The notes: generated by a model from the letters alone, not told the origin. A stretch of DNA of 49,872 bases from Euryarchaeota archaeon SCGC AAA252-I15 (GCA_000402775.1 AQSC01000058.1:1-49872); one strand, 5' to 3'; counted from the first letter of the stretch, positions 19,850 through 47,316 are shown. Translations and numbers: made by a program.

Positions 19850-20716
19850 TTATTTCACGCAAGACCTTAAAAAGTTGATTTTCCCAGACACAATTTCATC
19901 GCTTAAACAAGCAAGAGGAGTATAATGCGGGAGTTCAAGTTTTCGGACATTCTCAGGATCCAAGCCTGAAACGATTCCAAGACACCTTTTAGATTGTGCG
20001 ACTTCAACCAGTTTTTCAGGACTCAATACACCCGACTCCAAGTAATCTAATGTTTGGGGTGTGAAGTATGAGAGTGTTTCATGCAAGCCCAATGATTTAG
20101 AATCGTAAACAAGGAGGATTTCACAACCCCTTCGCATAAGCATCCAAGCAGCCAGCAAATCCCGCTCGGAATAAACTTGCGCTAAAAGTCTCCCCTGGGT
20201 TCCATAAGGTAGGCCTCCAACACCCGCAAATTTATCAGTGAACACGAAAGCTTTGTCGCCGTAGACTTCAATGTAGACTGTAGTGTCTGGATGGGTTAAG
20301 TCAACTCGGGCTCCACAGGCTTCCCGGATTGCGTCACCTACCACAACCTCCACATCCTTGGATGAAAAAGATTGTTTTCCCGTTTTTTTCGCCCGAACCG
20401 CAAAAGAAGAATCTTTACTGATTTTTTCTTTGGAATAACTTAGCGCAGTCTCTGCAATAACATTCAAATCAACTATCGTCTCCAATGCTGGACTTGTTGA
20501 AGTCACACCGAAAACCCGGCAAACCCGCAAAGCCACTTCCGAAGGGGAGCAAGTCTTCAAATAACACCTGTGCCGTCTTAAAACAACCTTGTAATCAAAC
20601 TCTTCCCCATCCAAAATCCCCTTAATGTTTCCCACAAGCCGCTCAGTGAATTTTTTCCGCACGTACTCGCTTTTCAAAAAAATCTCTCCGTAACGGACGA
20701 TAACTGAATCATTCAT
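19850..20716 (-). CDS. ThiI-like THUMP-domain protein with a degenerate PP-loop
   Basis: VRYGEIFLKS start, FAVRAKK THUMP core, GVGGLPYGTQGR; the expected SGGxDS is replaced by VYSERDL. Confidence 0.8.
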   Translation of the reverse strand: MNDSVIVRYGEIFLKSEYVRKKFTERLVGNIKGILDGEEFDYKVVLRRHRCYLKTCSPSEVALRVCRVFGVTSTSPALETIVDLNVIAETALSYSKEKISKDSSFAVRAKKTGKQSFSSKDVEVVVGDAIREACGARVDLTHPDTTVYIEVYGDKAFVFTDKFAGVGGLPYGTQGRLLAQVYSERDLLAAWMLMRRGCEILLVYDSKSLGLHETLSYFTPQTLDYLESGVLSPEKLVEVAQSKRCLGIVSGLDPENVRKLELPHYTPLACLSDEIVSGKINFLRSCVK

Positions 20717-20776
20717 CTCAATGACAATAAAATAGCTTTAAATAAATTAAAACCGTAATAATACTTTCGCTGAAAA

Positions 20777-20907
20777 CCCGTCTTAGCGTAGCTTGGTTAA
20801 CGCGGCTGGCTGTAGTTTGGATTCAAGGGGAAATAAATCCCTTTACCAGCCCTAAAAAGCATAAAGCAGCTACCGGCAGACCCCCGGTTCAAATCCGGGA
20901 GACGGGA
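20777..20907 (+). tRNA. tRNA-Tyr(GTA) with a 56-nt intron at 37/38 (20816-20871)
   Basis: Acceptor stem CCCGTCT/AGACGGG; anticodon stem GCTGG/CCGGC; T-arm CCCGG-TTCAAAT-CCGGG; BHB central helix CTGT/GCAG. Confidence 0.93.
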
Positions 20908-20919
20908 AACCATTTTCTT

Positions 20920-22625: not shown

Positions 22626-22720
22626 TTAACTCACCTCAAGTATGTAAGTTATCTTATTACAAAAGAAATAAGTGTAAAGGACTTGAACTTTCTCTAGCAT
22701 CCAAGGAGACTAGATTTTTT

Positions 22721-24274: not shown

Positions 24275-24467
24275 GCCTCGGTAGCTCAGTTGGTGGAGCG
24301 CCTGGCTGTTATGCAGAATTCGTAAAACGACCTAGCACGGTCCGACGCCGGCATCACACCCCCACGAGGGGAGTCGAAGCCAAATGGCTGAAGACAAGCA
24401 CGGAGGTCCCCAATGAATCTCTCGCACAGGAACCAGGCGGTCACAGGTTCAAGTCCTGTCCGGGGCG
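24275..24467 (+). tRNA. tRNA-Asn(GTT) with a 120-nt intron at 37/38 (24312-24431)
   Basis: Acceptor stem GCCTCGG/CCGGGGC; D-stem GCTC/GAGC; anticodon stem CCTGG/CCAGG; T-arm ACAGG-TTCAAGT-CCTGT; BHB helix CTGT/ACAG. Confidence 0.93.
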
Positions 24468-24501
24468 TCCGTGTAAAAAGGGTCGCAGTATAGTGTTTTT
24501 T

Positions 24502-26847
24502 CTAGATAATCAGTGGCAGGCTTATTAGGTTCCAGCCTGCCTGCAAGTTAGTTGAATAGGGTAGTATGGCACAGGAGTAAAAACAGCCTGACGTGGCACT
24601 CTCGTCCCCGTAGTTCTGGGTTGTGTTGCAGTAGTTATGGTCCCCTGTATTTGAGTCATCGTCTGCGATGTCGTAGTAGTCTCCGCCACTCTGGTTGTTC
24701 CCGCAGAAACGGTTATTGTTTAACGTGTTGCCTGTGCTGTTTGCGTCGGCACTGAAACCGTGCTCTTGGTTGCTGCTCCCGGTGTTGCCTATGATGGTGT
24801 TGTTACTCGACGATTCCAAATAGATACCACTATAGGTGTTCTCGTTTGCAGTGTTGTCTGTGATAGTATTATTATGCGACTCGTACAAGTTGGTGCCACC
24901 ATCAGAGTTGTTCGATATATTGTTGCTGATAATGTTATTATACGACACTCCATTTAGGGAGATGCCGCAATCCGTGTTAGATAACACATTATTGCTTGTA
25001 ATGTTGTTTTCCTCTGACCCTTCTATGTAGATGCCATCACCACCGTTAAACGTGACAATATTATCTGAAAGGGTATTGTGGCTGCTAGAATAGATACCAA
25101 CACCAGTGGCATTATTTGAATTCACTGTATTATTTGTTATATTGTTGCCACTCGAATTATCCAAGCTGATGCCACTATCCTTGTTCCCGGTGGCAGTATT
25201 GCCAGTGATCGTGTTATAGTCGCTGGAGGATTCGAGGCAGATACCGGGTTCGTTGTTATTGATTCCATTGTTATTTGTGAGTGTGTTGTTGCTGGATGAA
25301 TCTAGGAAGATGCCTTTGTGGACATTGTTGCTTGCATTATTGTGCGTAAGCGTGTTGTTGTTTGAGGAGAAGAGGGAGATGCCGTCGTCGGAGTTATTGT
25401 TGACTGTATTGTCTGTGACAGTATTATAATTACTGGAATCTTGCAAGGAAATACCGCTCTCATTGTTCGAGTTCGCAGTATTATTTGTGACTGTGTTGTT
25501 GCATGACTCCTGAAACAATTGGATACCACCGTGGTTGTTATTATTCGCGGTGTTGTTGGTGAGGGTATTGTTGTCCGAGTAATCCAGGCAGATTCCCCCC
25601 TCAGCGTTCTCGTTTATTGTGTTGTTTGTGACCGTGTTGTCGTTTGACTCCCACAACCAGATGCCGTGGTTTTCGGTGTTTGAATTAGCAGTATTTCCTC
25701 TAACTATGTTATAGTTGCTCGAATCGCTCAAGCGAATGCCAACGTTGTTCTCGCTGGCGGTGTTGTTTGTGAGAGTGTTATTGCTTGATGATTTCAAGTA
25801 GATACCGTCTCCGTTGTTCTCGTTCACGGTGTTGTTCGTGAGGGTGTTGTTGCTTGATGAGTCAAGGTATATTCCACTAGCATTGTTATTTGATATTGTA
25901 TTCAGCATTATCTCATTGGAGTTGCTTGAGTTGTATACAATGATACCAAACCAACCATTGTTGTTTATAGTATTATCTATTAACTTGTTGTTGTTACTGA
26001 ATGAATGGAGGGTAATGGCATAGACTCCTGTGTTGTTGGATATATCATTACCGGTGAAATTGTTGTTACTGCTAGACAGCAGGGCGACACCCCTAGCATT
26101 CAGGTTTACGGTGTTGTTAACTAAAGTGTTGTTAGTGGATGACTCCATGTAGATTCCAAAACCAAAGGGACCATACTCTGTTTCAGGTGTTGTTGTGTTG
26201 TAGATCTCGTTGTTGGTTAACGTGTTGTTGTGTGCGTCGGCCATGTAAATACCGACAGAAAAGTCTGTTGCAGTTGTGTTAGAAACATAATTGCTGTCCA
26301 CTATGTTGTTGTTAGAACCTATTAAGATAGCAAAAGACATGTCGCCGTAACCGGTATCGATACCTATTGTATCGAATATTGTGTTACCGATGATTCTGTT
26401 GAAGTGAGCGGAGTTCCATAACAAAATAGCCCAGTTTGTGTTGTTAACCCTGTTGTTTGACACATTGTTGTAGCTGGAATTCTCCAAGCATATACCACCC
26501 CCACTATCTAAAAGTGTGTTGTTATCCAACCTGCTGTTGTGCGTCAAGTTAAGATAAATTGCGGAGCCATTGACTGTGTAGCCTGTTATTACGCAATTCG
26601 TTACAGTTACATTATTCCTTCCTTGAGCGAAGATTCCATAGAATTCCTGGTCCCTGGTGTTACCCTCTAGGATGTGGGCATTGCAGTCGAGTGTGATGTC
26701 GTTGGCACCGATTATGAGTGCAGTGCCGTTGCAATTAAGGTCAGCCGTTAATGTCGTGTCTTCCGTGATGATGTCACCGCATGACACTGCACTAGCGTAA
26801 ATAGGTGAGAAAAATAAAACCAAACAAACCAATATTTTTAGCTTCAT
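24502..26847 (-). CDS. Secreted right-handed beta-helix (NosD/PbH1 repeat) protein
   Basis: Signal peptide; VSCGDIITEDTTLTADLNC cap; more than 20 ~22-24-aa NNTLTNNT...GIxL repeats; C-terminus LQAGWNLISLPLII. Confidence 0.92.
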   Translation of the reverse strand: MKLKILVCLVLFFSPIYASAVSCGDIITEDTTLTADLNCNGTALIIGANDITLDCNAHILEGNTRDQEFYGIFAQGRNNVTVTNCVITGYTVNGSAIYLNLTHNSRLDNNTLLDSGGGICLENSSYNNVSNNRVNNTNWAILLWNSAHFNRIIGNTIFDTIGIDTGYGDMSFAILIGSNNNIVDSNYVSNTTATDFSVGIYMADAHNNTLTNNEIYNTTTPETEYGPFGFGIYMESSTNNTLVNNTVNLNARGVALLSSSNNNFTGNDISNNTGVYAITLHSFSNNNKLIDNTINNNGWFGIIVYNSSNSNEIMLNTISNNNASGIYLDSSSNNTLTNNTVNENNGDGIYLKSSSNNTLTNNTASENNVGIRLSDSSNYNIVRGNTANSNTENHGIWLWESNDNTVTNNTINENAEGGICLDYSDNNTLTNNTANNNNHGGIQLFQESCNNTVTNNTANSNNESGISLQDSSNYNTVTDNTVNNNSDDGISLFSSNNNTLTHNNASNNVHKGIFLDSSSNNTLTNNNGINNNEPGICLESSSDYNTITGNTATGNKDSGISLDNSSGNNITNNTVNSNNATGVGIYSSSHNTLSDNIVTFNGGDGIYIEGSEENNITSNNVLSNTDCGISLNGVSYNNIISNNISNNSDGGTNLYESHNNTITDNTANENTYSGIYLESSSNNTIIGNTGSSNQEHGFSADANSTGNTLNNNRFCGNNQSGGDYYDIADDDSNTGDHNYCNTTQNYGDESATSGCFYSCAILPYSTNLQAGWNLISLPLII

Positions 26848-26933
26848 CTTATCAACCCATCGAATGTATTATTTAATCTCTGTTTTAATATCTTTCAAGA
26901 GGAGTCTGTGTACTATGTGCAGCCAGACCGATT

Positions 26934-27028
26934 TTTTATTCTCTAATTCTAATGTATAAGTAGAACAGCGAGATGCTGTTTTGTATGTAAATACCATTGC
27001 GGATGAGTAGACGCCTGTCCGGGGCGAA
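26934..27028 (+). repeat. 95-bp junction element, copy 1, ending in the tRNA-Asn 3' sequence
   Basis: 84/95 identical to 30687-30781 by manual alignment; ends CCTGTCCGGGGCG (27014-27026), equal to tRNA 24455-24467. Confidence 0.9.
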
Positions 27029-27104
27029 ACTTCACTTTTTTTATGCCTGCAGTGATGCGGTTTTAGCTTGAAAATAGGGTTTATCCTTGCAGGGACTTGA
27101 ACCA

Positions 27105-27815
27105 TTAAATTAGACTATTTTGTATTTCTCGTATGACCTTTCTGGTGTTTCTCGTTACTCTTTCGAATACTTTATCCGTTATGCTGAACTCACCTTTTAT
27201 CGAGTTCACGTATTTAGGATCATTTATCACCGAAAGCAATTCTCCAAGATGTTTTTTTATCACATCAACAGGACATCGTTTCAGGTGCTCGATTATCTTT
27301 TTTACTTTTGGTTTCTCGTAGCATAAGATTATTATGTCCCGTTTGTCCGTGAGCCTCATGGAATTGATTTTTAGTGCAATAATCATTTCCCTGTTAGCTA
27401 GCCGGACTTTCGCTTTCGAGTCGGGATGCCAGCCACTTACGGTTCTTGTCTCGGAATTTTTGAAAAGATAATTAAAGGAGTAACTGCTTCCAGTCTGCCT
27501 GGATTTTACTGAATTGGTGAGGATGTCCACACTAACAGGTAACTCCTCCTTCTTCTTGTATTTTCTGAACTCCCCCGCATAGATTTCATCCAAATCCTTT
27601 TTCTCTGTGGTGATTTTGAAGCCCTGAATATTAAGTAGTTCCTCAAAGAACTGTAGTTCATTTTTTGGAATTGTGATGTCTAGGTCAACGGAGAATCTTG
27701 GAAAACCGAAAGCACTTACTGCATATCCCCCTATGAGCACGTACTTTGTTTTTTCGGGAATGGTTCTAAGGAAATAAAAGCACTCATCTTCCCTTTTAAG
27801 TATTTTATCTCTCAT
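27105..27815 (-). CDS. AbiEii-like nucleotidyltransferase (type IV TA toxin candidate)
   Basis: YVLIGGYAV...RFSVDLDI motif; EMIIALKINSMRLTDKRDI. Confidence 0.75.
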   Translation of the reverse strand: MRDKILKREDECFYFLRTIPEKTKYVLIGGYAVSAFGFPRFSVDLDITIPKNELQFFEELLNIQGFKITTEKKDLDEIYAGEFRKYKKKEELPVSVDILTNSVKSRQTGSSYSFNYLFKNSETRTVSGWHPDSKAKVRLANREMIIALKINSMRLTDKRDIIILCYEKPKVKKIIEHLKRCPVDVIKKHLGELLSVINDPKYVNSIKGEFSITDKVFERVTRNTRKVIREIQNSLI

Positions 27816-27824
27816 AGTATATCC

Positions 27825-28475
27825 TCAGTGAGTTATGTGGTGATAATCCTCGAATAAACCTAATTTGTATTGGTTGTCTAAGTACTCTAATGCCGGCTGG
27901 TAAGTTAACTCGTTTTCCTTGCAGAATTTGATGGTCTCTTTCAAGGGAACAACTGGAGTGCCGTCTTTCTTTTCAACCTTGATTTTATTTCTGGGGTGTA
28001 ATACGTAGGTCAACCCGAATAAAGTCCTGCTTTCACCCTCCACGACATACTCTACGTCGTTTTTTTTGAAGAATTCCCGCCAGTATTTCAAATCTTTCTC
28101 CAAGACTTCGATGTGAATGGGCTTGAATCCTCTGGTAAATCCGGTGAAATAATAACCGTCAGTCCATATGCTCACTGCGTCACTTCCGCAGAACGCATAT
28201 TTTCTCTCAGCTTTCTCTATAATACGTTCCTTATCCAAATTTCCCTTGACGATTTCGGATACGAAAACGTGGGGTTCCTTAACAGTATACTGACCCCTCT
28301 CAATTCTATCCAAATAGCCATCACTAACTAGATCATGGACTACCTTCTTGGCTTGGGGACTTGGAAAAATGGAACTAAATTCCCTTAAACTGAATTCCTC
28401 CATTCCAAAAGCCTCCCACAACCAACCGTACAACTTCAAATACATATTCATAATGGTTACTATTATGGTAACCAA
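27825..28475 (-). CDS. Winged-helix AbiEi-like antitoxin candidate
   Basis: N-terminal wHTH ending LVSDGYLDRIERGQY; lies directly upstream of the nucleotidyltransferase. True start may be 28451 or 28445. Confidence 0.65.
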   Translation of the reverse strand: MVTIIVTIMNMYLKLYGWLWEAFGMEEFSLREFSSIFPSPQAKKVVHDLVSDGYLDRIERGQYTVKEPHVFVSEIVKGNLDKERIIEKAERKYAFCGSDAVSIWTDGYYFTGFTRGFKPIHIEVLEKDLKYWREFFKKNDVEYVVEGESRTLFGLTYVLHPRNKIKVEKKDGTPVVPLKETIKFCKENELTYQPALEYLDNQYKLGLFEDYHHITH

Positions 28476-28622
28476 TATTTAAATAGTTATCGCATTTACT
28501 AAAGTGCACATACAATATTTAGACTCTTGCAAGAGCCCTTATATCGAACGGGTAAGACGACGACCCAAAGCGAGGGCCAAACAAAGGTCCCCGCTCACAC
28601 CATTATTAGGGTTGGTTAATTC

Positions 28623-30584
28623 CTAGGTTCTAACTTCAATATATTCCGGATTATTCTTTGCTATCTTACTCAATATTTTTCCCATTTCAGAATTTGCATC
28701 TTTTATTTGAATAACTAAAGTATCCATCGCTCGAGTCAAGGGGATTAACAACCAATTCTTCGCATAATCTTTTCTTCTTTCCTCATAATCCCTCAAGTCT
28801 TTTTGAACAGATACATCCTCGAAAGTTTCTAGTTTATAATTGTAAAATGTATCAAATTCAAAAATTACTGTAATCCAACCCTCTAATCCTCTACAAGAAT
28901 CATATTGTACAATTCTCAATTGGTCAACTTCAGTTGGGAAACTTTGCTTTTTCACTTTCTGAATCGTACCATCCCAAATTGGATATCCCCATTCTTTTAA
29001 AGTATTTGATAATGTGGACCTCTTGGAGTTTCTATCTACCAATTCAGGAGGCACACAGAATAGCATGTCAACGTTCTCATTTTTATCTTGTTTATTAGAT
29101 TTAACTAACTCCTCATGAAACTGTTCAGTATAGTCTCCAAATAGGATAATTATTCTTCCTCCATATAATTCTTCTTGTTTCTCAAGATCCAAATCATCAA
29201 TATTTATTTTTTTTGTGAATTCCATTAAGAACTGTACGATATTTGATTTCTGTCGCATACTTCGTCTTAAGGGAATCACTTGTTTATCCTTTACTATGCG
29301 GGGTTTAGTCCAATTGCAGGGGTCTCCCCCTCGAATCAACTGATCATATCCATCAGCTACTATCACGTTTTTAGGTTGAAACAGTGAGTATATCAGATCT
29401 CTTTCACCTGCTGGCCAATCTTGTGCTTCATCAATCATTATGTAATCCCAATCGAGTAAATCTGGACGATCAAGCATGAGATTTCTTTTTAATTCTGGTT
29501 TCGATTCAATTAGGTGTTTTAATTTGCTAGTATATTCTTTTGGGATGTCTATTGATCCTCCGTAAATTCCATGTTCAAAATCTTCTTTTGTGCGAATACC
29601 TGTAGCATAAAAAAGTTTATACCAGTAACTAGTAAGAGACATTATTTGTATAGATTCATCCACGTCGTCCTTAATTCGCATTTGTGCAAAGAGTCTCCTG
29701 ATATCAGAGATTAAAGCAAGATTGTAAGTTAATATCAATACTCTCTCCAATCTTTCTTTATAAAGTTGATGAGCGATTCTCAATAGTCGGAAGGTTTTTC
29801 CTGTACCACCTCTACCCCTAAATACGAGTAATTGTTTGTGTAATTTTTCACCATACTTCTGGTCTTTTATGATTTCCTGGCATATCTTCTTGACTTTTTC
29901 TTTGTCAAGTCGGGTTAACGCCAATCTTTTCGTCAATAAATCTTTGCAGATTTGAAATGAGTCCCCATCTAAACCAGCACTATAAACTAATTCACTAGAA
30001 TCATATCTTCTTAACGGATACCTCTGACTAAGAATAATTTTCCAAAAATCTGGTACGGTAAAATCTTTGAAAAGTAGATTTATGTCTGTAGGTAACTCCC
30101 CGAAGTCATTACTATTTGAAAATGGGAAGTATATAAGATTCGATAGCCACGGATTCGTTTTAATATGATTTATTAAATAATCTCGAAGAGAATACCTCTG
30201 ATTTCTGTTTTGATGAGTTACCGCTCTTTTTTTACCTTGAGTTGTGACATAAACTTTTGTCCCAATTATTTCAATTTTGTCACTACTATGCTTTTTTACC
30301 TCAATAGCGCAACAAAAATCCCTTATTTTAACATCACTTAACTCTAAACCATGTTCTTCCTTGTAAACTTTGGCCTCAACTCTAGTTTGATAATCCTCTA
30401 AAAAACCTATAATTACAACATCAATATCTTGGGGTAATTGTCCGTAACACTGCACAGAAGGAATAATATATACATTATTTAATGGATTATTCTTCAATGA
30501 TTCGTCCTTCGCAAGGCAATCATAAATTTTTTTTGCAGATTCATATTCAGGGTCATCAATATCTTGAAGTAACGTGATTGTCAT
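28623..30584 (-). CDS. Nuclease (NERD/PD-DExK-like) fused to an SF1 helicase
   Basis: DIDVVIIG...AIEVKKH nuclease motif; GRGGTGKT; DEAQD; CRGLEG; LTRAMD; AT-rich DNA. Confidence 0.8.
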   Translation of the reverse strand: MTITLLQDIDDPEYESAKKIYDCLAKDESLKNNPLNNVYIIPSVQCYGQLPQDIDVVIIGFLEDYQTRVEAKVYKEEHGLELSDVKIRDFCCAIEVKKHSSDKIEIIGTKVYVTTQGKKRAVTHQNRNQRYSLRDYLINHIKTNPWLSNLIYFPFSNSNDFGELPTDINLLFKDFTVPDFWKIILSQRYPLRRYDSSELVYSAGLDGDSFQICKDLLTKRLALTRLDKEKVKKICQEIIKDQKYGEKLHKQLLVFRGRGGTGKTFRLLRIAHQLYKERLERVLILTYNLALISDIRRLFAQMRIKDDVDESIQIMSLTSYWYKLFYATGIRTKEDFEHGIYGGSIDIPKEYTSKLKHLIESKPELKRNLMLDRPDLLDWDYIMIDEAQDWPAGERDLIYSLFQPKNVIVADGYDQLIRGGDPCNWTKPRIVKDKQVIPLRRSMRQKSNIVQFLMEFTKKINIDDLDLEKQEELYGGRIIILFGDYTEQFHEELVKSNKQDKNENVDMLFCVPPELVDRNSKRSTLSNTLKEWGYPIWDGTIQKVKKQSFPTEVDQLRIVQYDSCRGLEGWITVIFEFDTFYNYKLETFEDVSVQKDLRDYEERRKDYAKNWLLIPLTRAMDTLVIQIKDANSEMGKILSKIAKNNPEYIEVRT

Positions 30585-30686
30585 TGTTTCAGCAACGAAA
30601 GTATATTGTATATCTTTTAAAATAACTGAAGAATATCATAAATTAATCTTTTGCTCCGACCAACATCAAACTTGATAGATACACCC

Positions 30687-30781
30687 TTTTATTCTCTGGT
30701 TCTAATGTGTAATCAGAACAGCGAGATGCTGTTTTCGATGTAAATCGTATTGCGGATGAGTAGACGCCTGTCCGAGGCGAA
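30687..30781 (+). repeat. 95-bp junction element, copy 2
   Basis: See copy 1; ends CCTGTCCGAGGCG (30767-30779). Confidence 0.9.
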
Positions 30782-30788
30782 CCTTTGA

Positions 30789-31067
30789 TTAGTCGTGTGG
30801 TAGTTTGTATATTTTGTCGTGGTGTGCGATGCGGACGAATCTCACTAAATCGCCGTCTATTCGGAATGTTATCACAAATGAACCTGCTTGAACACGCCTG
30901 TATCCTGCAAGCGGCCTCCGGAGTGGCTTGTACGCGTTGGGATTTTCAAGTATCTGTAGAATCTTTTTATCCACATGTTCTTGCAGAGACTTGTCTTTTT
31001 TAATAATTTTTCCGTAGTCTTTCCTGAAGTACTCGCTGCGGGCTGGACGATACTTTCTCTCCATCAT
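30789..31067 (-). CDS. RelE/ParE-superfamily toxin
   Basis: 92 aa, basic; FRKDYGK...ILENP...PLAGYRRVQAGSFVITFRI...RIAHHDKIY. Confidence 0.85.
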   Translation of the reverse strand: MMERKYRPARSEYFRKDYGKIIKKDKSLQEHVDKKILQILENPNAYKPLRRPLAGYRRVQAGSFVITFRIDGDLVRFVRIAHHDKIYKLPHD

Positions 31068-31072
31068 ACGCT

Positions 31073-31330
31073 TTACTCAACTGCAGTATGGAGGTCTTTT
31101 AGGAGGTCTCGGCCGCTAGAAAACTCCTTGTACCCGCTTTTCTCAGCCTTTCGCATGGACTCTACGAACTCGGGGTTGATTTCACGTTGCTCGTCCAACT
31201 CATTGCGTAGGCCGCTTCGGACCATCTCTGAAAAGGAATGGTAGACGCCATGCTCTACAAGCGCCTTCGCCTGGTGATACATGCCAACAGGCAAGGAAAT
31301 ATTAACTTTCAGTGTATCCATGATATACAC
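31073..31330 (-). CDS. Ribbon-helix-helix antitoxin
   Basis: KVNISLP...ALVEHGVYHSFSEMVRSGLR; acidic tail; directly upstream of the toxin. Confidence 0.85.
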   Translation of the reverse strand: MYIMDTLKVNISLPVGMYHQAKALVEHGVYHSFSEMVRSGLRNELDEQREINPEFVESMRKAEKSGYKEFSSGRDLLKDLHTAVE

Positions 31331-31395
31331 TACACAAAACTAGAATAAAAACAAAATTAACCCTTTTTGCCTGCAACTCCGGACCCACGCGCAAA

Positions 31396-31412
31396 GTCCA
31401 AGTCCGGGGCGT
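31396..31412 (+). repeat. Degenerate tRNA-Asn 3' copy (att-like)
   Basis: GTCCAAGTCCGGGGCGT matches GTTCAAGTCC[TGTCC]GGGGCGT with one substitution and a 5-nt microhomology deletion. Confidence 0.65.
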
Positions 31413-31475
31413 AACCTTTATTAAATTGGTCGTAATCTGTTGATTTTTTTAAGGGGTTGTATTTCCCCCTCATTT

Positions 31476-31643
31476 TTAACCTGTCAATACTGCTTGCTTC
31501 CATTTGCGCCTGGTTGTGCGGGTTAAAATAAAGAATTTATCAACATCCTCTTGCTTTTCAGGGTCACCGCCCCGCAATCTAATAGCGCTTTTTTCTAAAT
31601 CAGTTAGTTGAGCACATGTTGGTGGCAATCTACCAGAAGTCAT
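31476..31643 (-). CDS. Possible 55-aa ORF
   Basis: MTSGRLPPTCAQLTDLEKSAIRLRGGDPEKQEDVDKFFILTRTTRRKWKQAVLTG; the only sizeable ORF found in this cassette; no family. Confidence 0.3.
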   Translation of the reverse strand: MTSGRLPPTCAQLTDLEKSAIRLRGGDPEKQEDVDKFFILTRTTRRKWKQAVLTG

Positions 31644-31810
31644 TCTTGGCTAAGTATTAAGAACAATAGGATTAAAAGTGAACTCTCAGGTTTCTCGTAG
31701 GAAAAAGTCAAGGACTTGAACTTAATCTAGACTAGAATCTTGTGTTCCCAACCTCTTGAATCCCGTAAAATCAATCTTTCCCCCCCCCTCGTCTCCCGGA
31801 TGTTACTTGT

Positions 31811-31831
31811 GTTCAAGTCCTGTCCGGGGCG
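31811..31831 (+). repeat. Perfect 21-bp tRNA-Asn 3' copy (attR-like)
   Basis: GTTCAAGTCCTGTCCGGGGCG identical to 24447-24467. Confidence 0.95.
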
Positions 31832-31865
31832 AAATTTTTCGTTCGACACCCCAGAGATTATCATA

Positions 31866-33002
31866 TCACATTAATGTCCCGTAGATTAGTCCTGCGATTG
31901 TGCAGAAGACCGTTACGAGAAGAACGTATACAAACGTTTTCTTTGTACCTATGAGACCTCGCACAACGATAACACTGGGAAAAGATAGCACGGGGTCTGC
32001 AAGCAGGTATGCAAGAAGCGGGCCCCGACCCATCCCTTGTTCTAGGAAAAGCTGAGCCATAGGGACCTCAACGAGGGTTGGGAAATACATTACTACGCCA
32101 AACAAAACGGCGAGGAAATTCGCCACGACGCTATTGCCCCCAACATATTGTCCTAGAAAGTTGTCAGGTATCAGGGGATTAATAAAGCCTGCGAAAAAAA
32201 CACCTGCTAGTAGGAGGGGGAAAATCTTCTCGACGAAAGAATATGTTTCTGAAAGCCACGATTCCCTCTCAATTTTGTTAAGCTTCTTTTTTGCCTGCCA
32301 AGCGAGGAAAACAATTAATGCGGCGAGCAGTATGGTCTTTTCTGTTAATCCAAGGCCGTAGGTTCCAACCACAAGTATGGCAAAAAGTGTCAGCAAAAAC
32401 AGTGTTGTTCTATCCTTGAATATCCGCACATACCACTTACTGTCATCTATTTCTATTGGAAGTTCTTGAATCTCCCCATCATCCTCCTTAAATAATCCTG
32501 AAAGAATGAGGCCTATTAAGGTTGCAAACACAATTGATAAAATAATCCTTGCGATTGCAAAGTCCCATCCGATGACGCCGCCTGTGAAGACAATCGCCAT
32601 GATGTTGATTGCGGGGGCTGTGTAGAGGAAGGCGATTGCAGGACCCAACCCAGCACCCCTCTTTTTTATGCCTGCAAACAACGGCAGTACTGTGCATGAA
32701 CAAACTGCAAGGACAAAACCCGCTACCACTGACAGAGGGTATGCCTTCCACTTCGACACCTTATGCCCTAAGTATCTAGTTATATCTTCTTTCGGGACTA
32801 GGGCGGATATCGCCCCCGCGATAAAAAACGCAGGTACCAGGCACGTTAATATGTGGAGTTTTGCGTAGTCGTGGAGCATGAACAGTGCGTTGGTCCAAGG
32901 ATCATCAGATTGCTGCCCGGCCTCGGGGAGGTAATATGGGAGGAAGTATAATGCGAGGAATGCCAGTACCATGAGGGCAAGCTTATTTTTTGTCTGCATC
33001 AT
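31866..33002 (-). CDS. DUF318/ArsP-like permease
   Basis: TCLVPAFFIAGAI, AVCSCTVLPLF, GPAIAFLYTAPAIN, MYFPTLVEVP. Confidence 0.9.
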   Translation of the reverse strand: MMQTKNKLALMVLAFLALYFLPYYLPEAGQQSDDPWTNALFMLHDYAKLHILTCLVPAFFIAGAISALVPKEDITRYLGHKVSKWKAYPLSVVAGFVLAVCSCTVLPLFAGIKKRGAGLGPAIAFLYTAPAINIMAIVFTGGVIGWDFAIARIILSIVFATLIGLILSGLFKEDDGEIQELPIEIDDSKWYVRIFKDRTTLFLLTLFAILVVGTYGLGLTEKTILLAALIVFLAWQAKKKLNKIERESWLSETYSFVEKIFPLLLAGVFFAGFINPLIPDNFLGQYVGGNSVVANFLAVLFGVVMYFPTLVEVPMAQLFLEQGMGRGPLLAYLLADPVLSFPSVIVVRGLIGTKKTFVYVLLVTVFCTIAGLIYGTLM

Positions 33003-33228
33003 TAATCCATTTAACTATCTCTTCCATGGTCGCGATTTTTCCAGAGCATTTAACGTTCCCGTCCAAGACCAATGCGGGAGTCATCATGACGCCGTAGGAG
33101 AGTATCTTGTCCATGTCTTCGACTTTCACAACCTCTGCGTCTGCTCCCATTTCTTCAACTGCTTTTTTTGCGTTCTCCTCAAGTTTTTTGCATTTCGGAC
33201 ATCCAGTACCCAGAATTTCAATCTTCAT
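32983..33228 (-). CDS. Small redox-active disulfide protein (Thioredoxin_3 / MTH895-like)
   Basis: MKIEILGTGCPKC...YGVMMTPALVLDG. Confidence 0.92.
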   Translation of the reverse strand: MKIEILGTGCPKCKKLEENAKKAVEEMGADAEVVKVEDMDKILSYGVMMTPALVLDGNVKCSGKIATMEEIVKWINDADKK

Positions 33229-33240
33229 TTTTTCCTTCCT

Positions 33241-33951
33241 TTATGTTAGTGCGAGTGCGATGAAGTAGAGGCCGACAAGGATGAATATGGCGGCTACTAC
33301 TTTGCGGGATGCTTTTTCCATGACCTGTGTTTTATGCATTATCTTGCCTAGAGACGAGACGCTTTTCACCAAAAGTATGGAGGATATGATTACGGGGAGC
33401 CCTGTTGCGAATGCGAAAACCGATGGAACAAGGATTGCGTCATGGGTTTTGAGAGCCAGTGGGATAAGCATTCCAAAGTATAGTACTGCGCTGAAAGGAC
33501 AAAATGAAATGGCAAAAACCACTCCCAGGAGGAAGCTACCAATATATCCTTTTTCACCCAGTCTTTGTTTCAGATTTTCAAGTCTCGTACCGCCTGATGG
33601 CAAGTTGATTTTTACGGCCTCAATCATCACCAACCCGGCCAAAAGGAGTATCGGTCCGAGAATGATTTCCCCGTATTCTTGGAATACCATTGAGGCTTCC
33701 CTAGAGTTCAAGCCCACATACACTATCAATACCGCTAACAGGGTGTAGGACATCATCCTCCCCAGCGTGTAAAGAATCCCGACAAGTATCGTGTTTTTGC
33801 TGTCGCCTATTCTTCTTGAGATGTATGCGACAGCTGTGATATTTGTTGTCAATGGACATGGGCTCAATGCGGTCATAAGGCCGATGAAGAACGCGGCGAC
33901 AAGTGGTATGTTGCTTGTACCCATTGACTCCATGAAAGACATTATATCCAT
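33241..33951 (-). CDS. ArsG-like / DsbD-like membrane protein
   Basis: ALSPCPLTTNITAV, SFCPFSAVLYFGMLIP. Confidence 0.85.
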   Translation of the reverse strand: MDIMSFMESMGTSNIPLVAAFFIGLMTALSPCPLTTNITAVAYISRRIGDSKNTILVGILYTLGRMMSYTLLAVLIVYVGLNSREASMVFQEYGEIILGPILLLAGLVMIEAVKINLPSGGTRLENLKQRLGEKGYIGSFLLGVVFAISFCPFSAVLYFGMLIPLALKTHDAILVPSVFAFATGLPVIISSILLVKSVSSLGKIMHKTQVMEKASRKVVAAIFILVGLYFIALALT

Positions 33952-33955
33952 TTTA

Positions 33956-34471
33956 CTATTGGTTCAGTTTGGCTTCGATAACGGACTTAAGATAGGACTT
34001 GTATTCCTGTTCATCATTTAATTTGTACCATACTTTTGTGTCTTCCTCCTTGCTGAATCCATTGCTGTTGTAGACTCCAATCATTAACGATGAGCCGCTT
34101 GCCCCGTATTTTTCCGCTAACTCTTTGTTTTCCGATAATTGAATGTTTATGTGGCCGAATTTCAGCCTGCCAGATTCCAACTCATTGTTGAAGTAGGTGT
34201 TCACAGTCTTTTCAGCAAATTCTCCCAGGGTTTTACATGACCAGCACTGGCTTGTTCTGTGAAAATGATAAACCTCAACCCGGACCTGCTGTGAATCCAA
34301 ACCACAGGATTGTGCATTTGGATCACATACTGATTCTGTTTTGACTGGAAGTGTCGTTGTGGTTTGTTTCTCGTTTGTTGTTGTGTTAGAAACGGTGTTT
34401 TGGTTTGTAATGCAACCTGATGCCAAAACCAGCAGTGTGAGAGCCAACAAATAGTAATGCCAATAAGCCAT
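33956..34471 (-). CDS. ArsF-like secreted thioredoxin-fold lipoprotein
   Basis: LASGC signal; VEVYHFHRTSQCWSC...AEKTV...F...GRL. Confidence 0.8.
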   Translation of the reverse strand: MAYWHYYLLALTLLVLASGCITNQNTVSNTTTNEKQTTTTLPVKTESVCDPNAQSCGLDSQQVRVEVYHFHRTSQCWSCKTLGEFAEKTVNTYFNNELESGRLKFGHINIQLSENKELAEKYGASGSSLMIGVYNSNGFSKEEDTKVWYKLNDEQEYKSYLKSVIEAKLNQ

Positions 34472-34475
34472 GCAC

Positions 34476-34497
34476 TATATTAGTAAATTTGAATATA
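34476..34497. promoter_or_regulatory. Palindromic operator TATATT-N10-AATATA (copy 1)
   Basis: Sits in the gap between arsR and the ArsF-like gene; same arms and spacing as 34781-34802. Confidence 0.65.
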
Positions 34498-34506
34498 TAA
34501 ATACAG

Positions 34507-34773
34507 TTATTCTATTTTGCCCGATGTTTCAAGCAGTTTCTTTAAAGCATTATCTGCGAGCCGGTAGTAGACGCTTAAACCGTCTTTGCGATATTTCACA
34601 AGGCCTGCTTCATGCAGTATCTTTAGGTGTGCGCTTGTCGTGGGCTGGCTTTTCCCGGTTGCAGGTATTATCTCGCAAACGCATAGCTCTTTTACAGCCA
34701 ACAATCTGATAATTGTGAGTCTTGTGGGATCTCCCAATGCCTTGAATATCTTGACCTGACGTTCTAAATCCAT
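34507..34773 (-). CDS. arsR: ArsR/SmtB transcriptional repressor
   Basis: FKALGDPTRL, ELCVCEI, SQPTTSAHLKILHEAGLV, YYRL. Confidence 0.93.
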   Translation of the reverse strand: MDLERQVKIFKALGDPTRLTIIRLLAVKELCVCEIIPATGKSQPTTSAHLKILHEAGLVKYRKDGLSVYYRLADNALKKLLETSGKIE

Positions 34774-34780
34774 CAGAAAA

Positions 34781-34802
34781 TATATTTGGATATATGAATA
34801 TA
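34781..34802. promoter_or_regulatory. Palindromic operator TATATT-N10-AATATA (copy 2)
   Basis: Immediately upstream of the arsR start. Confidence 0.65.
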
Positions 34803-34878
34803 AGACCTTATTGTCCCAACATCATTTTAATGCACAGAAACACCATAATTAATGTAAAGGACTTGGACATCTATGTTA

Positions 34879-34894
34879 ACGCCTGTCTGGGGCG
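34879..34894 (+). repeat. Outermost degenerate tRNA-Asn 3' copy
   Basis: ACGCCTGTCTGGGGCG matches ACGCCTGTCCGGGGCG of junction 1 at 15/16; preceded by GGACTTGGAC at 34859. Confidence 0.75.
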
Positions 34895-34988
34895 CAAGCC
34901 CTTTTTCTTTCTTTGAAAAAAGGGAGTGTAGCAATGGAAACAAAGCGTTCATGCGTGTCGGACTGGGGGTTTGAGATATTTCATTTCA

Positions 34989-35381
34989 TCACTTGCAGTA
35001 ACAGATTGTTGGCAGGGCACAGCAGCCCGCACCCGCTGGACGGTACGTACAAGTCCTGCCAGACGAGCAGACTGCTTCCCTGCATGCGCTGGGACTTGGG
35101 TTTCGGACATCATAACATGAAATTTTTTTGATAGTGGTTGACTGGATTGGTTGGATGGTGGTGGTTGTGGTAGTCTGCAGGGTAGTTGTTGTTGAGGTTG
35201 TTGATGAAGTAGTGGTCGTGCTTGTAGTTGTTGTTGAGGAGGTGGTGGATGTTGTAGTTGTGGTGGTTGACGTTGTTGACGTGGAAGTGGTTGATGTCGT
35301 GGTAAAACTAGGATTACTGATACATCCACAAACCGATGCCAGCACCACAAATACAATTAATAATGTTTTTGTTTGTATCAT
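34989..35381 (-). CDS. Thr-rich secreted lipoprotein-like protein with a Cys-rich tip
   Basis: LASVCGC signal, ~45-residue S/T run, six Cys in the last 36 aa. Confidence 0.75.
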   Translation of the reverse strand: MIQTKTLLIVFVVLASVCGCISNPSFTTTSTTSTSTTSTTTTTTSTTSSTTTTSTTTTSSTTSTTTTLQTTTTTTIQPIQSTTIKKISCYDVRNPSPSACREAVCSSGRTCTYRPAGAGCCALPTICYCK

Positions 35382-35905
35382 TCCACTTCCCCTCGACTCA
35401 TTACACTCCCGACAACCACACCATTAATCACGGAGAATGCCATCATGTATCCAGTAAGAACTAGAGTATATGTTAAACCAAAGTAGTGCACCAAAACCGG
35501 GATGAGAGGTATCTTGACAGCACGGTTGTAGAGAAAGACAACAAGCAGCGGGTTTTTCAATCCCTTGTCCCTCAGTTCAGCGAGCAATGGATACCAGAGG
35601 AATATTGGGCCGGTGGAAAGTAATCCCGCCAATATCGCGGTAATCCAAACTCCCACACCATCAGCCTCAACCAATCGCTTAGCCACCATCTTGGAGTCCA
35701 TGAATAGGTTGGCTGTGAAAAGGAATAACAGTACCAGGAGGAGTGAAGGCAAAAGCTGGGATGCGATCTTAAAAAAGATTTCCAGGGACGCCGTGAAAAT
35801 CAGAGGCTTCGCGGACCCAATCACTGCGTAAAGCAGGATTACCATCAAGAGGAAAATCCACTGCACCTTCAACTTGCCTTGCTCTTTCTTTTTTATCTTT
35901 TTCAT
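35378..35905 (-). CDS. Permease half (split DUF318-like)
   Basis: Start reset to MKKIKK at 35905 (ATGA overlap); LSTGPIFLWYPLL, FLYNRAVKIP. Confidence 0.8.
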   Translation of the reverse strand: MKKIKKKEQGKLKVQWIFLLMVILLYAVIGSAKPLIFTASLEIFFKIASQLLPSLLLVLLFLFTANLFMDSKMVAKRLVEADGVGVWITAILAGLLSTGPIFLWYPLLAELRDKGLKNPLLVVFLYNRAVKIPLIPVLVHYFGLTYTLVLTGYMMAFSVINGVVVGSVMSRGEVE

Positions 35906-40079: not shown

Positions 40080-40935
40080 CTTTTAAAACCTCCAAAACAT
40101 TCGACCATACATCCTTTATTATGCCTGAAACACCCTCACTTGCGTGTTCGATTATGGTTTTGCCCTCAATCATTGCTTTCGTGAAGGAAACATCATAAGG
40201 TATTTTACCGACAACCCTGACGCCTTGTTCCTTACAGTATTCTTCTATCTCGTCTGCTTTCTCAGGATTAATGTCATATTTGTTGATGCAAACTACTGCC
40301 GAAACCTTGAAGTGCGCTACCACACCCAGTATCCGCTCCAAATCGTGCAGTCCGGACATGGTCGGTTCGGTAACCACTAAAACTTGGTCCACGCCGCCGA
40401 TGGACGCTATCACCGGGCATCCTATCCCGGGGGAACCGTCTATTATGATTAAATCCGAGTTTTTCTCTTTAGCGATTTCCTTGGCTTTGTTTCTGACAAC
40501 CGTAACCAGTTTACCCGAAGCCTCCTCACCGGGTTGGAGTCTGGCGTGACAAAGCGGCCCAAACCGCGTCTCGGAGATGAATGATTCACCAGCAACTTTG
40601 TCGTGCATTGAGACGGCTGAGACTGGACATACGATGGTGCAGACTCCGCACCCTTCACAGGAAAGCAGGTTGACTTTAAAGTCTTTTATTGCGTTGAACC
40701 TGCATTTTTCCATACATACCCCGCATTTAATACATTTTCCTTCATTGATTACGGCAGTCTCTAACGCCTTGAAGTCTTCTTTAACATTCACCTCTGGTTG
40801 CAGGAGCAGGTGAAGGTCGGATGCATCGACGTCACAGTCTGCAAGCACCTTGTTTTCCGCTAACGCTGCAAACGCCCCGACAAGACTTGTCTTTCCGGTC
40901 CCGCCTTTCCCGCTTATTACCGTCAACTGCTTCAT
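40072..40935 (-). CDS. MinD-family P-loop ATPase with 4Fe-4S insert
   Basis: SGKGGTGKT, DCDVDA, CIKCGVC, CEGCGVC, DGSPGIGCPV, VTEPT. Confidence 0.92.
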   Translation of the reverse strand: MKQLTVISGKGGTGKTSLVGAFAALAENKVLADCDVDASDLHLLLQPEVNVKEDFKALETAVINEGKCIKCGVCMEKCRFNAIKDFKVNLLSCEGCGVCTIVCPVSAVSMHDKVAGESFISETRFGPLCHARLQPGEEASGKLVTVVRNKAKEIAKEKNSDLIIIDGSPGIGCPVIASIGGVDQVLVVTEPTMSGLHDLERILGVVAHFKVSAVVCINKYDINPEKADEIEEYCKEQGVRVVGKIPYDVSFTKAMIEGKTIIEHASEGVSGIIKDVWSNVLEVLKDG

Positions 40936-40963
40936 TGCTCGCTAGCCCTCACATTTTCCATAA

Positions 40964-41665
40964 TCAAACCCATCCCCCGATCATTGCTACACCAAGGCAG
41001 AACATTATGGTACCCGCCGTCAAGTGCAGGTACTTGATGTTCTTATCCTTCCAACCATTAACATCCTCGACTCGGGCGATACCGGCGTAAACGAGCAGGG
41101 TTATGACGATCATGGGAGAGACAAAAATGAGGTTGTATATTAGAAGCCAGGGTATGGTCTTCAGCAGGTCCATTGCAGAGAGTATGCCTCCGGCTATAAC
41201 ATAGGGGCCTATGGTGCAGGGCAATAGGAATATTGTTACGAAAGCTCCTACCGTGAATGCGCCCTTGGGACTTGTTATACCGCCTATTAACTTCTTCAAC
41301 TTCGGCCTCCATGAGAGGGGCATCTCAGTCATAAGTCCTCCTGGCTTGTATTTGAAGAAGTCTTTTACGTTTAATATTCCGAGTATTATTGCAATCAACC
41401 CAAGGATTTTATACAGCCATATCCTCACTGAGGTCAGCATCTGAACCAGCTGGAAGAAACGGATTATTACAAGCCCGTAGAACATGTATAACACGTACAC
41501 GGATGTTGTGAATGCGAGTCCCGCAAGCAGGACATTACGCTTGTCTTTTGGATTGTAGGTTAGTATTGCAATCAACATCAATGTTAAAACAGCCAGTGCG
41601 CACGGATTTACCGCATCAACGGCGGCAAGCGAAATAATCTTCGCCATACTCAAGTCTTCAATCAT
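40964..41665 (-). CDS. CcdA/DsbD-like membrane protein
   Basis: DAVNPCAL, LLPCTIGPY. Confidence 0.85.
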   Translation of the reverse strand: MIEDLSMAKIISLAAVDAVNPCALAVLTLMLIAILTYNPKDKRNVLLAGLAFTTSVYVLYMFYGLVIIRFFQLVQMLTSVRIWLYKILGLIAIILGILNVKDFFKYKPGGLMTEMPLSWRPKLKKLIGGITSPKGAFTVGAFVTIFLLPCTIGPYVIAGGILSAMDLLKTIPWLLIYNLIFVSPMIVITLLVYAGIARVEDVNGWKDKNIKYLHLTAGTIMFCLGVAMIGGWV

Positions 41666-45793: not shown

Positions 45794-46537
45794 TCAAGCT
45801 CCGCCATGTGCGATTATTTTTATCGCCAGCATCAAACCCACCCCGATAAGGAAAAACATAAATGATATCATGGCCTTTTTCATGTCAGCCTCCTTGTGTA
45901 GTTCAGGGATTAAATCAGATGCTGCGATATAGAGGAAACCACCTGCAGCAAACGGCAGCATAAGTGTTTTGAATCCCTCCAGGGGTATAAGATACCCGAC
46001 AACTCCACCGAGAACACAGGTTAGTTGTGAGAGGAAATTGTAGAACAATGCCTTACCTTTACTCATTCCCCCATGCAGTAACACTCCGAAATCCCCCAGC
46101 TCTTGGGGTATCTCGTGGGCTATTATCAAAAAAGAGGTTACTACTCCAAGGCGTACGTCAGCCATGAATGCTGCCGCAATCACCAGCCCATCAATAAAAT
46201 TATGTATGCCATCCCCAAAGAGTATCATGTAACTGTACTCATGTACTTCACATTCCCTCTCATGGCAGTGGTGCCAGTGCAGGAACCTCTCCACCAGAAA
46301 GAAGACGGAGAATCCGGCAATAAGTATTAGAAAAGCCGTATCGACAGTCAATACGGTTAGTGATTCCGCCAGAAGATGGAGCAGACCGCCACCCAGCAAC
46401 GCCCCGGCGGAAAACGAGACCATCACGTAAAGCATCTTCCTGAGGGTTTTCTCGTTCAACAAGAGCGTTACCGCCCCAACAAAAGCGACCAACCCGTCAA
46501 TGAATGTGAAGGCGAGGATCCAGACCAGGATATTCAT
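45794..46537 (-). CDS. ZIP metal transporter
   Basis: HWHHCH, DGIHNFIDG, HEIPQELGDF, SDLIPELH. Confidence 0.92.
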   Translation of the reverse strand: MNILVWILAFTFIDGLVAFVGAVTLLLNEKTLRKMLYVMVSFSAGALLGGGLLHLLAESLTVLTVDTAFLILIAGFSVFFLVERFLHWHHCHERECEVHEYSYMILFGDGIHNFIDGLVIAAAFMADVRLGVVTSFLIIAHEIPQELGDFGVLLHGGMSKGKALFYNFLSQLTCVLGGVVGYLIPLEGFKTLMLPFAAGGFLYIAASDLIPELHKEADMKKAMISFMFFLIGVGLMLAIKIIAHGGA

Positions 46538-46911
46538 TCTTCAACCTCCAGCCTCGAAAGTCTCCCTTCAACAAAATTTGTAATATTTTCCCCCGAAGTT
46601 AATCCTCTCGGCCGATACAACTCTACAGCATGTTCAAATGAAACGAGCAGTGACACCAAAAGTGACGCTAAAGTCTCAGCCGTATAGTACCCGTAACTGA
46701 ATGTCTTGTCCGGCTTTCTCTCTGAAATCTTAAGCCCGGACCAGACGGCTAGACTACTGGCAACGTCAGTCAGTGAATGCAGTGCGCCGGCAGTCAAAGC
46801 AATGCTGCCAGACGCTAACCCAACACTTCCTTTCACCAGCGTTAAAAGAAAGAGTGTGACTGCGGAGTTTCCCGCCGCGAGTTTTCCATACATTATTCTC
46901 TCAGTACTCAT
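46534..46911 (-). pseudogene. Internally deleted cation diffusion facilitator (CDF)
   Basis: TM1-TM3 motifs (GSIALTAGALHSLTD, SYGYY) followed by a NifX-like C-terminal tail; only 125 aa. Confidence 0.7.
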
Positions 46912-46914
46912 GCT

Positions 46915-47316
46915 TTATTTCCCACACTCTTTTTTTCCATGCAATTGACTTCTGAAGGCATGCTGACTGCACGCCGTATCCTCCGTCGCAGGCGTCAGTG
47001 AACCATTCTTCCACTGCTCTAACGCATCCTTCACAGTCCCTAATGCTTCACAGTAGACTTGAATTCCCTTCTCAGAAAACATCTGTATCGCTCTTCTCCC
47101 AAGCCCCCGACACAACAGGATTTCAACTCCGACGCCGGCAAGCATTTCAGGGGGATAACCTTGGCCGCCCATGTGATGACTTGCATTAGAGATGACTTCA
47201 ACTACCCCCGTTTCATCATCAATTAAGGTGTACGTAAGCACCCGCCCGAAATGCTCACCAACCTGCTCACCCAACCCTTTATCCCCGTCTGTCGGAACTG
47301 CGATTTTCATCCTCAC
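46915..47316 (-). CDS. NifB/NifX (Nitro_FeMo-Co) family protein
   Basis: KIAVPT, HFGR, GLGRRA. Confidence 0.9.
   Translation of the reverse strand: MRMKIAVPTDGDKGLGEQVGEHFGRVLTYTLIDDETGVVEVISNASHHMGGQGYPPEMLAGVGVEILLCRGLGRRAIQMFSEKGIQVYCEALGTVKDALEQWKNGSLTPATEDTACSQHAFRSQLHGKKECGK

Follow-up and report, generated by a model that had tools for sequence, protein, structure and literature searches.

A tRNA-Asn-anchored array of small integrase-less modules in a euryarchaeal genome, with strain variation at copies of the tRNA 3' end

Tandem accretion at the attachment (att) sites of ICEs (integrative and conjugative elements) and IMEs (integrative and mobilizable elements) has been described for Streptococcus and other bacteria in the form of cis-mobilizable elements (CIMEs) (PMC5704250; Pavlovic 2004 and Bellanger 2011, cited there). 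In the tycheposon islands of Prochlorococcus, partial tRNA copies mark successive integrations (bioRxiv 10.1101/2020.12.28.424599), and additive flexible islands at tRNA genes are known from Alteromonas (PMC3698932). Tandem integration and loss of the integrase are known in archaea (PMC8371274, PMC6563490), as are SSV-type 'suicidal' integrases (PMC7253208), while the integrons and clusters of attC sites lacking integrases (CALINs) of archaeal metagenome-assembled genomes (MAGs) have bacterial-type attC sites (PMC9668308). Here we describe an array of small gene modules that begins at a tRNA-Asn gene in a 49,872-nucleotide stretch of DNA from Euryarchaeota archaeon SCGC AAA252-I15 (GCA_000402775.1 AQSC01000058.1:1-49872; hereafter the window, to which coordinates refer), and which an earlier note had presented as a candidate integron- or pdif-like cassette array. 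On balance, and with moderate confidence, we favour a tRNA-Asn-anchored additive island, the att-flanked and integrase-less modules of which resemble CIMEs and would be moved by a recombinase acting in trans, together with homologous recombination.

The 3' end of the tRNA-Asn gene recurs five times downstream of it, at 27014, 30767, 31402, 31811 and 34882, so that the recurrence reported in the earlier note is borne out. The tRNA calls are those of Rfam, ARAGORN having reported none in the window because the unusually long introns of both tRNA genes (121 nt in tRNA-Asn, 24275-24467, and 59 nt in a second gene, 20777-20907) hide them at the settings used. The anchor, the copies (cores J1 to J5) and a hairpin at the far end are listed here; variant C is a strain variant and L058 a contig from another organism, both described below.

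24275-24467, plus strand: tRNA-Asn(GUU), Rfam RF00005, 49.3 bits; the primary attachment site (attB/attL) is formed by its 3' end
27014-27026, plus strand: core J1, CCTGTCCGGGGCG, 13/13 identical to the tRNA-Asn 3' end
30767-30779, plus strand: core J2, CCTGTCCGAGGCG, 12/13 ('A' variant); in L058 this 13-mer also forms the boundary of the ParE/ribbon-helix-helix (RHH) module
31402-31411, plus strand: core J3, GTCCGGGGCG, 10/10; a degenerate longer copy, AAGTCCAAGTCCGGGGCG, runs from about 31393
31811-31831, plus strand: core J4, GTTCAAGTCCTGTCCGGGGCG, 21/21; variant C reads GTTCGTGTCCTGTCCGAGGCG
34882-34894, plus strand: core J5, CCTGTCTGGGGCG, 12/13; distal end of the island
34889-34912, plus strand: terminator-like hairpin with tRNA-derived bases, GGGGCGCAAGCCC, followed by the T-run TTTTTC

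The tRNA-Asn gene consists of exon 1 (24275-24311), the intron (24312-24432, after CUGUUA) and exon 2 (24433-24467). All six copies, that of the tRNA included, are direct repeats on the plus strand, and the five downstream ones are all intergenic. The cores fall into two classes, one made of ACG plus CCTGTCYGGGGCG (13 nt identical to the tRNA) and the other beginning in the T loop (18-21 nt identical). The anatomy, an intact tRNA gene at one end and segments set off by direct partial copies of its 3' end, is that of an additive island, and is what successive rounds of site-specific integration into a tRNA attB classically leave behind. The hairpin and T-run at 34889-34912 are probably the original trailer or terminator of tRNA-Asn, moved 10.4 kb away from the gene. 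With cores of only 10-21 nt and metagenomic data, one might suspect chance matches or assembly artefacts, an explanation that is effectively refuted. With at most one mismatch, the 13-mer of the tRNA-Asn 3' end has 5 matches where 0.02 are expected, all of them intergenic and on one strand, and the exact 10-mer has 4 where 0.06 are expected. Moreover, the window matches contigs of many metagenome assemblies at 99.4-100%, independent assemblies reproduce its arrangement at 100% identity, and its variants turn up repeatedly in assemblies that bear the labels JGI, ENA and Logan. Samples in which the organism occurs include SRR3951845, SRR3951959-61, SRR8437245/246/275/277 and the JGI sets 3300005645 and 33000281xx-282xx.

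The cores delimit five modules (E1 to E5), and our domain and defence-system scans agree with the cassette sizes and gene inventory given in the earlier note. In the list, P arm denotes the sequence left of a core (P' arm, used below, that to its right).

24468-27013, minus strand: module E1, a 781-aa NosD/right-handed beta-helix surface protein (24502-26847; Pfam NosD, 3.6e-92), with a type-I P arm at 26934-27013
27027-30766, minus strand: module E2, AbiEii-like (27105-27815), AbiEi-like (27825-28475) and helicase (28623-30584) genes, with a type-I P arm at 30687-30766 (Pfam, PADLOC)
30780-31401, minus strand: module E3, ParE toxin (30789-31067) and RHH antitoxin (31073-31330) (Pfam)
31412-31810, minus strand: module E4, a remnant, nearly empty apart from a 55-aa orphan open reading frame (ORF; 31476-31643)
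31832-34881, minus strand: module E5, ArsP permease (31866-33002), Trx_3 (32983-33228), DsbD_2 (33241-33951), ArsF-family (33956-34471) and ArsR (34507-34773) genes (Pfam, NCBIfam)

All genes of these intervals lie on the minus strand, like the flanking chromosomal genes. The 653-aa helicase of E2 is a nuclease-helicase-like ATPase with weak similarity to Nhi, GajB and Schlafen helicases, and the composition of this module is foreign (G+C 35-39% vs about 45% around it). In E4, the 55-aa ORF retrieved only itself in a homologue search, and an imperfect palindrome occupies 31797-31830; the same module has a poly-C tract (31780-31788) whose length differs among variants and at which several contigs stop. 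The modules are not promoterless single-ORF cassettes, since they carry one to five genes with regulators of their own (ArsR, RHH antitoxin, AbiEi-like). TATA-like boxes can be read in the arms and may be functional.

The content of the segments differs among close relatives, with breakpoints at the repeats at all but one place (28499/28500). Coinciding contig ends at 28499 and 34891 hinted at branches in the assembly graph; SNP (single-nucleotide polymorphism) maps ruled out strain SNPs as their cause, and two variants of the window type (variant A), which we call B and C, account for them. In variant C (four assemblies, with both junctions on contig L043 and only the right one on L046, L048 and L049), the whole ArsR operon module E5 (31832-34881) is replaced by an unrelated 2.09-kb module that encodes a 601-aa NosD/DUF11 protein and holds a small zinc-ribbon ORF; the protein and its 3' flank are paralogous to those of E1. 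The divergence starts inside J4 (31815, 31816, 31827) and ends inside J5 (34888 and 34890), and the new module is bounded on both sides by TTCGTGTCCTGTCCG(A/G)GGCG, its right core having two forms, GGGGCG and GAGGCG, in different samples. All variants rejoin the window sequence from 34882/34891 onward. Given that two unrelated modules abut the same decayed E4, with breakpoints inside cores of 13-21 nt, at least one exchange must have taken place at an internal core.

Variant B (contigs L028 and L034-L038) was found in six samples, one of which also holds variant A. Here the helicase region 28608-30685 is swapped for 1.6 kb with genes for 159-aa and 300-aa proteins, bounded by a 108-nt tail (about 85% identical) and a P arm (90% identical). 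The variant-B core runs straight into TAACCTTTATTAAATTGG, the sequence that follows J3 in the window, and the junction consists of the left half of J2 and the right half of J3; the ParE/RHH module E3 is therefore missing exactly at the cores. An invariant locus, which the earlier note had named among the outcomes that would refute its reading, is thus not what we observe: co-existing strains show exact replacement, absence and cargo swaps at the cores.

Two structured segments are recorded here in their own right. The 108-nt tail (28500-28607; L028 2117-2225), which variants A and B share, includes a perfect palindrome, CTCTTGCAAGAG, and, immediately upstream of the TATA-like box of the AbiEi-like gene, a GGGGCC..GGTCCCC stem. 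The variant-B P arm (L028 ~386-441) has a 55-nt insertion between CGGATG and AGTAGAC, which forms two strong hairpins (CACAATCGC/GCGATTGTG and AGGGTTC/GAATCCT) and may represent either a miniature insertion or some small structured element.

The sequences that adjoin the cores belong to five or more unrelated types and do not form one site family, yet subsets of modules share them. A 99-nt P arm is common to E1, E2 and the variant-B module at 88-90% identity (88% between 26934-27032 and 30687-30785); the E5 arm resembles it weakly, and the arms of E3 and E4 are unrelated to it. On the other side, the P' arm starts with AACCTTT in E3, E4 and the variant-C module, and the left ends of E3 and the variant-C module have 22 identical nt, CCTGTCCGAGGCGAACCTTTGA. 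A complete site would be expected to consist of a P arm, CCTGTCCGRGGCG and AACCTTT.

We propose that each module came in by site-specific recombination of an attP-like site of its own (P arm, core, P' arm) with one of the cores that the array contained by then. Each insertion would have restored tRNA-Asn and pushed the original trailer outward and, because every internal junction again has a core, later insertion, deletion or replacement would be possible inside the array and at its distal end as well as next to the tRNA. A tyrosine integrase is the most likely recombinase; it would be encoded outside the array, either elsewhere in the genome or on a helper element, or might since have been lost. 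It would act in trans, presumably through circular intermediates, and may still be active at present, while homologous recombination between strains would add a further reshuffling of haplotypes. In several respects the array is comparable to CIMEs, which are also tandem units flanked by attL/attR-type repeats of a target gene 3' end and devoid of integrase or transfer genes; their integrase is supplied by another element, and an internal att copy can be used by an incoming one, as we propose here. However, CIMEs occur as one or two units beside a functional ICE or IME, whereas this locus has at least five units, with no integrase-bearing partner in 50 kb, and belongs to an archaeal host without a known conjugation module; its modules are also much smaller (0.4-3.8 kb).

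An integrase or its remnant is required of islands in general and absent by definition in CIMEs. For no gene of the 50-kb window did we find a recombinase or transposase family match, either in our own scans or in the precomputed Pfam results, and the six-frame translations of every spacer and junction region gave no Pfam match at E <= 1, a threshold that short or strongly decayed fragments could escape. Profile scans of the variant modules detected no integrase, and the 300-aa variant-B protein, which has the size of a recombinase, had no match in Pfam, NCBIfam, PHROGs, PADLOC or PDB sequences. The statement of the earlier note that no cassette carries an integrase can therefore be extended to detectable remnants, as covered by the family scans and six-frame spacers. 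A 78-aa ORF across core J1 was considered as an int(N) fragment and rejected, having no family match and no counterpart at other cores. Subterminal hairpins prompted us to consider an IS200/IS605-like single-strand transposon, which was also rejected: there is no TnpA or TnpB, and the ends are tRNA-derived direct repeats. In viral contigs, scans with the 21-nt core returned only tRNA genes of T7-like phages, and those with the P arm, arm plus core, or core plus P' arm were empty. Phage records gave no Megablast match to the island, and tblastn of the E2 helicase against plasmids gave only bacterial matches of about 30% identity. A metagenome scan with arm plus core recovered only a known variant-B contig and one random high-G+C match, in a collection that evidently lacks most contigs of this organism. 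Integrated elements of archaea likewise have tRNA 3' ends as their targets and direct repeats as their traces, and they can be stacked in tandem or be left without an integrase, but the described cases are proviruses or plasmids of several kilobases that carry genes for replication or morphogenesis. Suicidal integrases differ in that they leave int(N)/int(C) pseudogenes at the repeats, and SSV-type pseudogenes of this kind were looked for at the repeats of the array and not found.

Part of the array has a counterpart elsewhere. The closest homologue of ParE (88% amino acid identity) lies on the 3.8-kb contig L058 (1-3771) from an unrelated sample, which has 87% nucleotide identity to the window over 30764-31358, stopping at a core 13/13 identical to J2. 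Past that core, L058 continues into a different module with a 205-aa protein and MazE, the P arm of which (GTAGAGGACTTGGTC-N13-core) resembles the E5 arm (GTAAAGGACTTGGAC-N13-core). A second core, 21/23 identical to the J4 of variant C, is followed by a 92-aa ORF and a phosphoenolpyruvate synthase gene. Rfam found no tRNA at E <= 1 in these 3.8 kb. Other homologues of ParE occur on a 57.8-kb contig and in an Altiarchaeota MAG. The consensus TTCGTGTCCYGWCCGAGGCGAAC, which differs from the tRNA, is common to variant C and to L058, where no tRNA is nearby. One may wonder about a separately evolved archaeal integron-like platform, in which single-operon integrase-less cassettes with their own site family, TTCGTGTCCYGWCCGAGGCGAAC, would be moved by a trans-acting recombinase at any core, the tRNA-Asn 3' end being the primary docking site; we put this forward tentatively and consider it rather unlikely.

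A true integron-like platform, with a dedicated recombinase, folded single-stranded sites and the tRNA-Asn end in the role of attI, is the reading that the earlier note favoured. Its appeal lies in the co-oriented integrase-less cassettes with cargo typical of integrons, the exact cassette replacement at the distal position, the recurrence of TTCGTGTCCYGWCCGAGGCGAAC away from a tRNA, and the existence of CALIN arrays without IntI in archaeal MAGs (PMC9668308). Furthermore, one junction is a significant imperfect palindrome: compared with shuffled sequences, the fold of 31790-31835 has z = -4.5. Here the hairpins proposed in the note find their only support, as the z values of the other four junctions lie between 0 and -2.2, and the 13-nt cores fold at minimum energy into a local CGCC(T)..(G)GGCG mini-dyad instead of the CGGAT/GTCCG pairing that had been put forward. 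The 55-nt insertion of variant B falls inside one of the proposed hairpin spacers. No family match to IntI exists next to the array in the 50-kb window (CALINs lack IntI by definition), and attC-type R''/R' pairs (RYYYAAC / GTTRRRY) number zero on either strand of 24400-35000 by a simple pattern test, as opposed to the covariance model of IntegronFinder. The several unrelated types of arm, and cassettes that are operons with their own regulators and TATA-like boxes, also argue against this platform, which we regard as improbable. The pdif comparison leads to a similar outcome. No dif-like 11-6-11 (28-bp) sites were found, the cores showing at most a 4-5-bp dyad, CGCC(T)-N5-(G)GGCG, as judged without comparison to the archaeal dif consensus, and the opposite orientation of flanking pdif sites is not seen in six copies that are all direct on the plus strand. 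Taken with the heterogeneous arms, the multi-gene modules and the mostly non-significant hairpins, the missing IntI, attC-type and dif-like sites lead us to abandon the integron/pdif label. What the array does have in common with integrons and CALINs is co-oriented recombinase-less cassettes, toxin-antitoxin and accessory genes, turnover between strains and a recombinase that, in our case by inference, works in trans. It differs from them in its 10-21-nt tRNA-end copies with heterogeneous arms, where theirs are attC sites of 57-141 nt with R''/L''/L'/R' boxes, and in having a tRNA anchor rather than attI.

Returning to the tRNA-anchored island with modules moved in trans, several points weigh against it. 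As the searches yielded no recombinase, the central actor is hypothetical, and the heterogeneity of core lengths (10, 13 and 21 nt) and arms obliges us to assume more than one enzyme or much decay. The variants come from short-read metagenome assemblies, of which several independent ones agree, and neither an empty site nor a circular junction or tandem duplicate was seen in the contigs. Cores without a tRNA, such as those of L058, are not predicted by a strictly tRNA-anchored model. The classic model predicts most turnover next to the tRNA, yet the proximal 4 kb (E1 and the AbiE pair) are invariant in all contigs, with module E1 present in every contig of this population. Between variants A and B, identity drops from about 100% to about 85% exactly at 28499/28500, where there is no tRNA-like core. 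Finally, the SNPs of E4 are mosaic, in that B and C share 31512, 31584 and 31623, B being like the window to the right of these positions and C to the left, and strain SNPs lie in tight clusters at 20375-20917 (which covers the tRNA-Tyr intron), 40276-41468 and 46070-47042. Clustered SNPs in otherwise identical sequence are a signature of frequent homologous recombination tracts. Therefore homologous recombination also reshuffles haplotypes here, and it may explain part of the shuffling.

The mosaic and clustered SNPs would suit an array of inert relics, in which full-size integrase-bearing elements accreted long ago and left remnants of their cargo, and in which strains differ by homologous recombination only. 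The same can be said of the coreless breakpoint, past which the 85%-identical sequence runs on to 28607, of E4, which looks like a remnant, and of the documented loss of archaeal integrases after integration (PMC8371274). Against inert relics, E5 and its variant-C replacement both adjoin the same decayed E4, and efficient homologous recombination needs more than the 13-21 nt of the cores in which the breakpoints lie; there are two forms of the right core of variant C; no integrase fragment is left in any of at least seven modules; and another organism has modules, likewise as small as 0.6-2 kb, in which promoter-gene units are intact and arms are conserved. We therefore see inert relics as a possible but not a probable explanation. 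As for the simpler alternative mentioned in the earlier note, the right framework is indeed that of tandem accretion at a tRNA attB, but 'decayed and inert' is too weak a description.

A neighbouring tRNA gene shows the same pattern as the tRNA-Asn island. This second tRNA (20777-20907, plus strand) has the anticodon read as GUA (Tyr), and a 1.8-kb module with a 117-aa gene and a 452-aa YadA-head-like gene starts exactly at its 3' end and finishes at a degenerate repeat, ATCCAAGGAGACTAGA (22699-22714). The only relative that a scan with the THUMP protein retrieved from the genome collection, a 'Methanobacteriota archaeon' MAG (contig L027, about 93-96% nucleotide identity), carries a different, 271-aa gene in the tRNA-Tyr slot (1713-3217), flanked by an exact 11-nt repeat, GGGAGACGGGA. 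It keeps tRNA-Asn(GUU) as well; its contig stops 66 nt past that gene, and homology to the window ends 38 nt past it. A homologue search with the flanking 174-aa protein found only the query itself. The set of FTR and Rnf genes points to a methanogen-like archaeon.

Another motif, AAGGACTTGRAC, is the reverse complement of the T-loop segment GTTCAAGTCCT of tRNA-Asn. It occurs on the plus strand at 22677-22688, 27091-27102, 31710-31721 and 34857-34868, and in L058 at ~642-656, recurring 50-95 nt upstream of module start codons (7 matches vs 0.72 expected) and lying about 10-14 nt from a core in E5, the tRNA-Tyr module and L058. It could be a binding site for the recombinase or for a regulator. 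Elsewhere in the window, 5141-9608 holds a type IIG restriction-methyltransferase (987 aa, PADLOC 6e-219), behind which lie a 228-aa protein, a 53-aa ORF and a protein with a Bro-N domain; this is possibly one more small insert, defensive or mobile, among housekeeping genes. Just beyond the island, public gene calls choose a low-complexity plus-strand ORF (35128-35427; 86-90 aa) over a minus-strand one (34989-35381). The latter has a signal peptide, a Thr/Ser-rich linker and a Cys-rich C-terminus, and looks the more plausible gene.

Among described islands, the tycheposon islands have the same tRNA anchor, scattered partial tRNAs, niche and defence cargo and heterogeneity among co-existing cells. 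They hold integrase-carrying elements and fragmented integrases, however, of which none were found here, and their variability peaks next to the tRNA, whereas here the proximal 4 kb are fixed and the middle and distal modules vary. The Alteromonas islands also vary in cassette number among near-identical strains through sequential insertion at a tRNA, but they are a descriptive bacterial category, and the integrase-less state, shared arms and exact core-to-core replacement lie outside its definition. We class the locus not with the integrons but with a known type of island, of which it is a lively example. What is unusual is that all units are small and integrase-less, that subsets of them share arms, that turnover affects the middle and distal parts beside a fixed tRNA-proximal 4 kb, and that a non-tRNA consensus recurs away from a tRNA in another organism.

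The array supplies its host with accessory traits, namely surface proteins, abortive-infection and other defence functions, toxin-antitoxin pairs and organoarsenical and redox resistance. The exchange of small accessory gene sets is poorly documented in archaea, especially in methanogen-like lineages, and the integrated elements described so far are mostly whole proviruses or plasmids. In this locus, single-operon units are exchanged among co-existing strains at nucleotide-precise sites, without a resident recombinase in the window. Should there be no trans-acting enzyme, it is still a clean natural case of a tRNA-anchored additive island whose internal att copies are the breakpoints of variation; if such an enzyme were found, the locus would define an archaeal cassette-exchange system, together with a testable set of sites.

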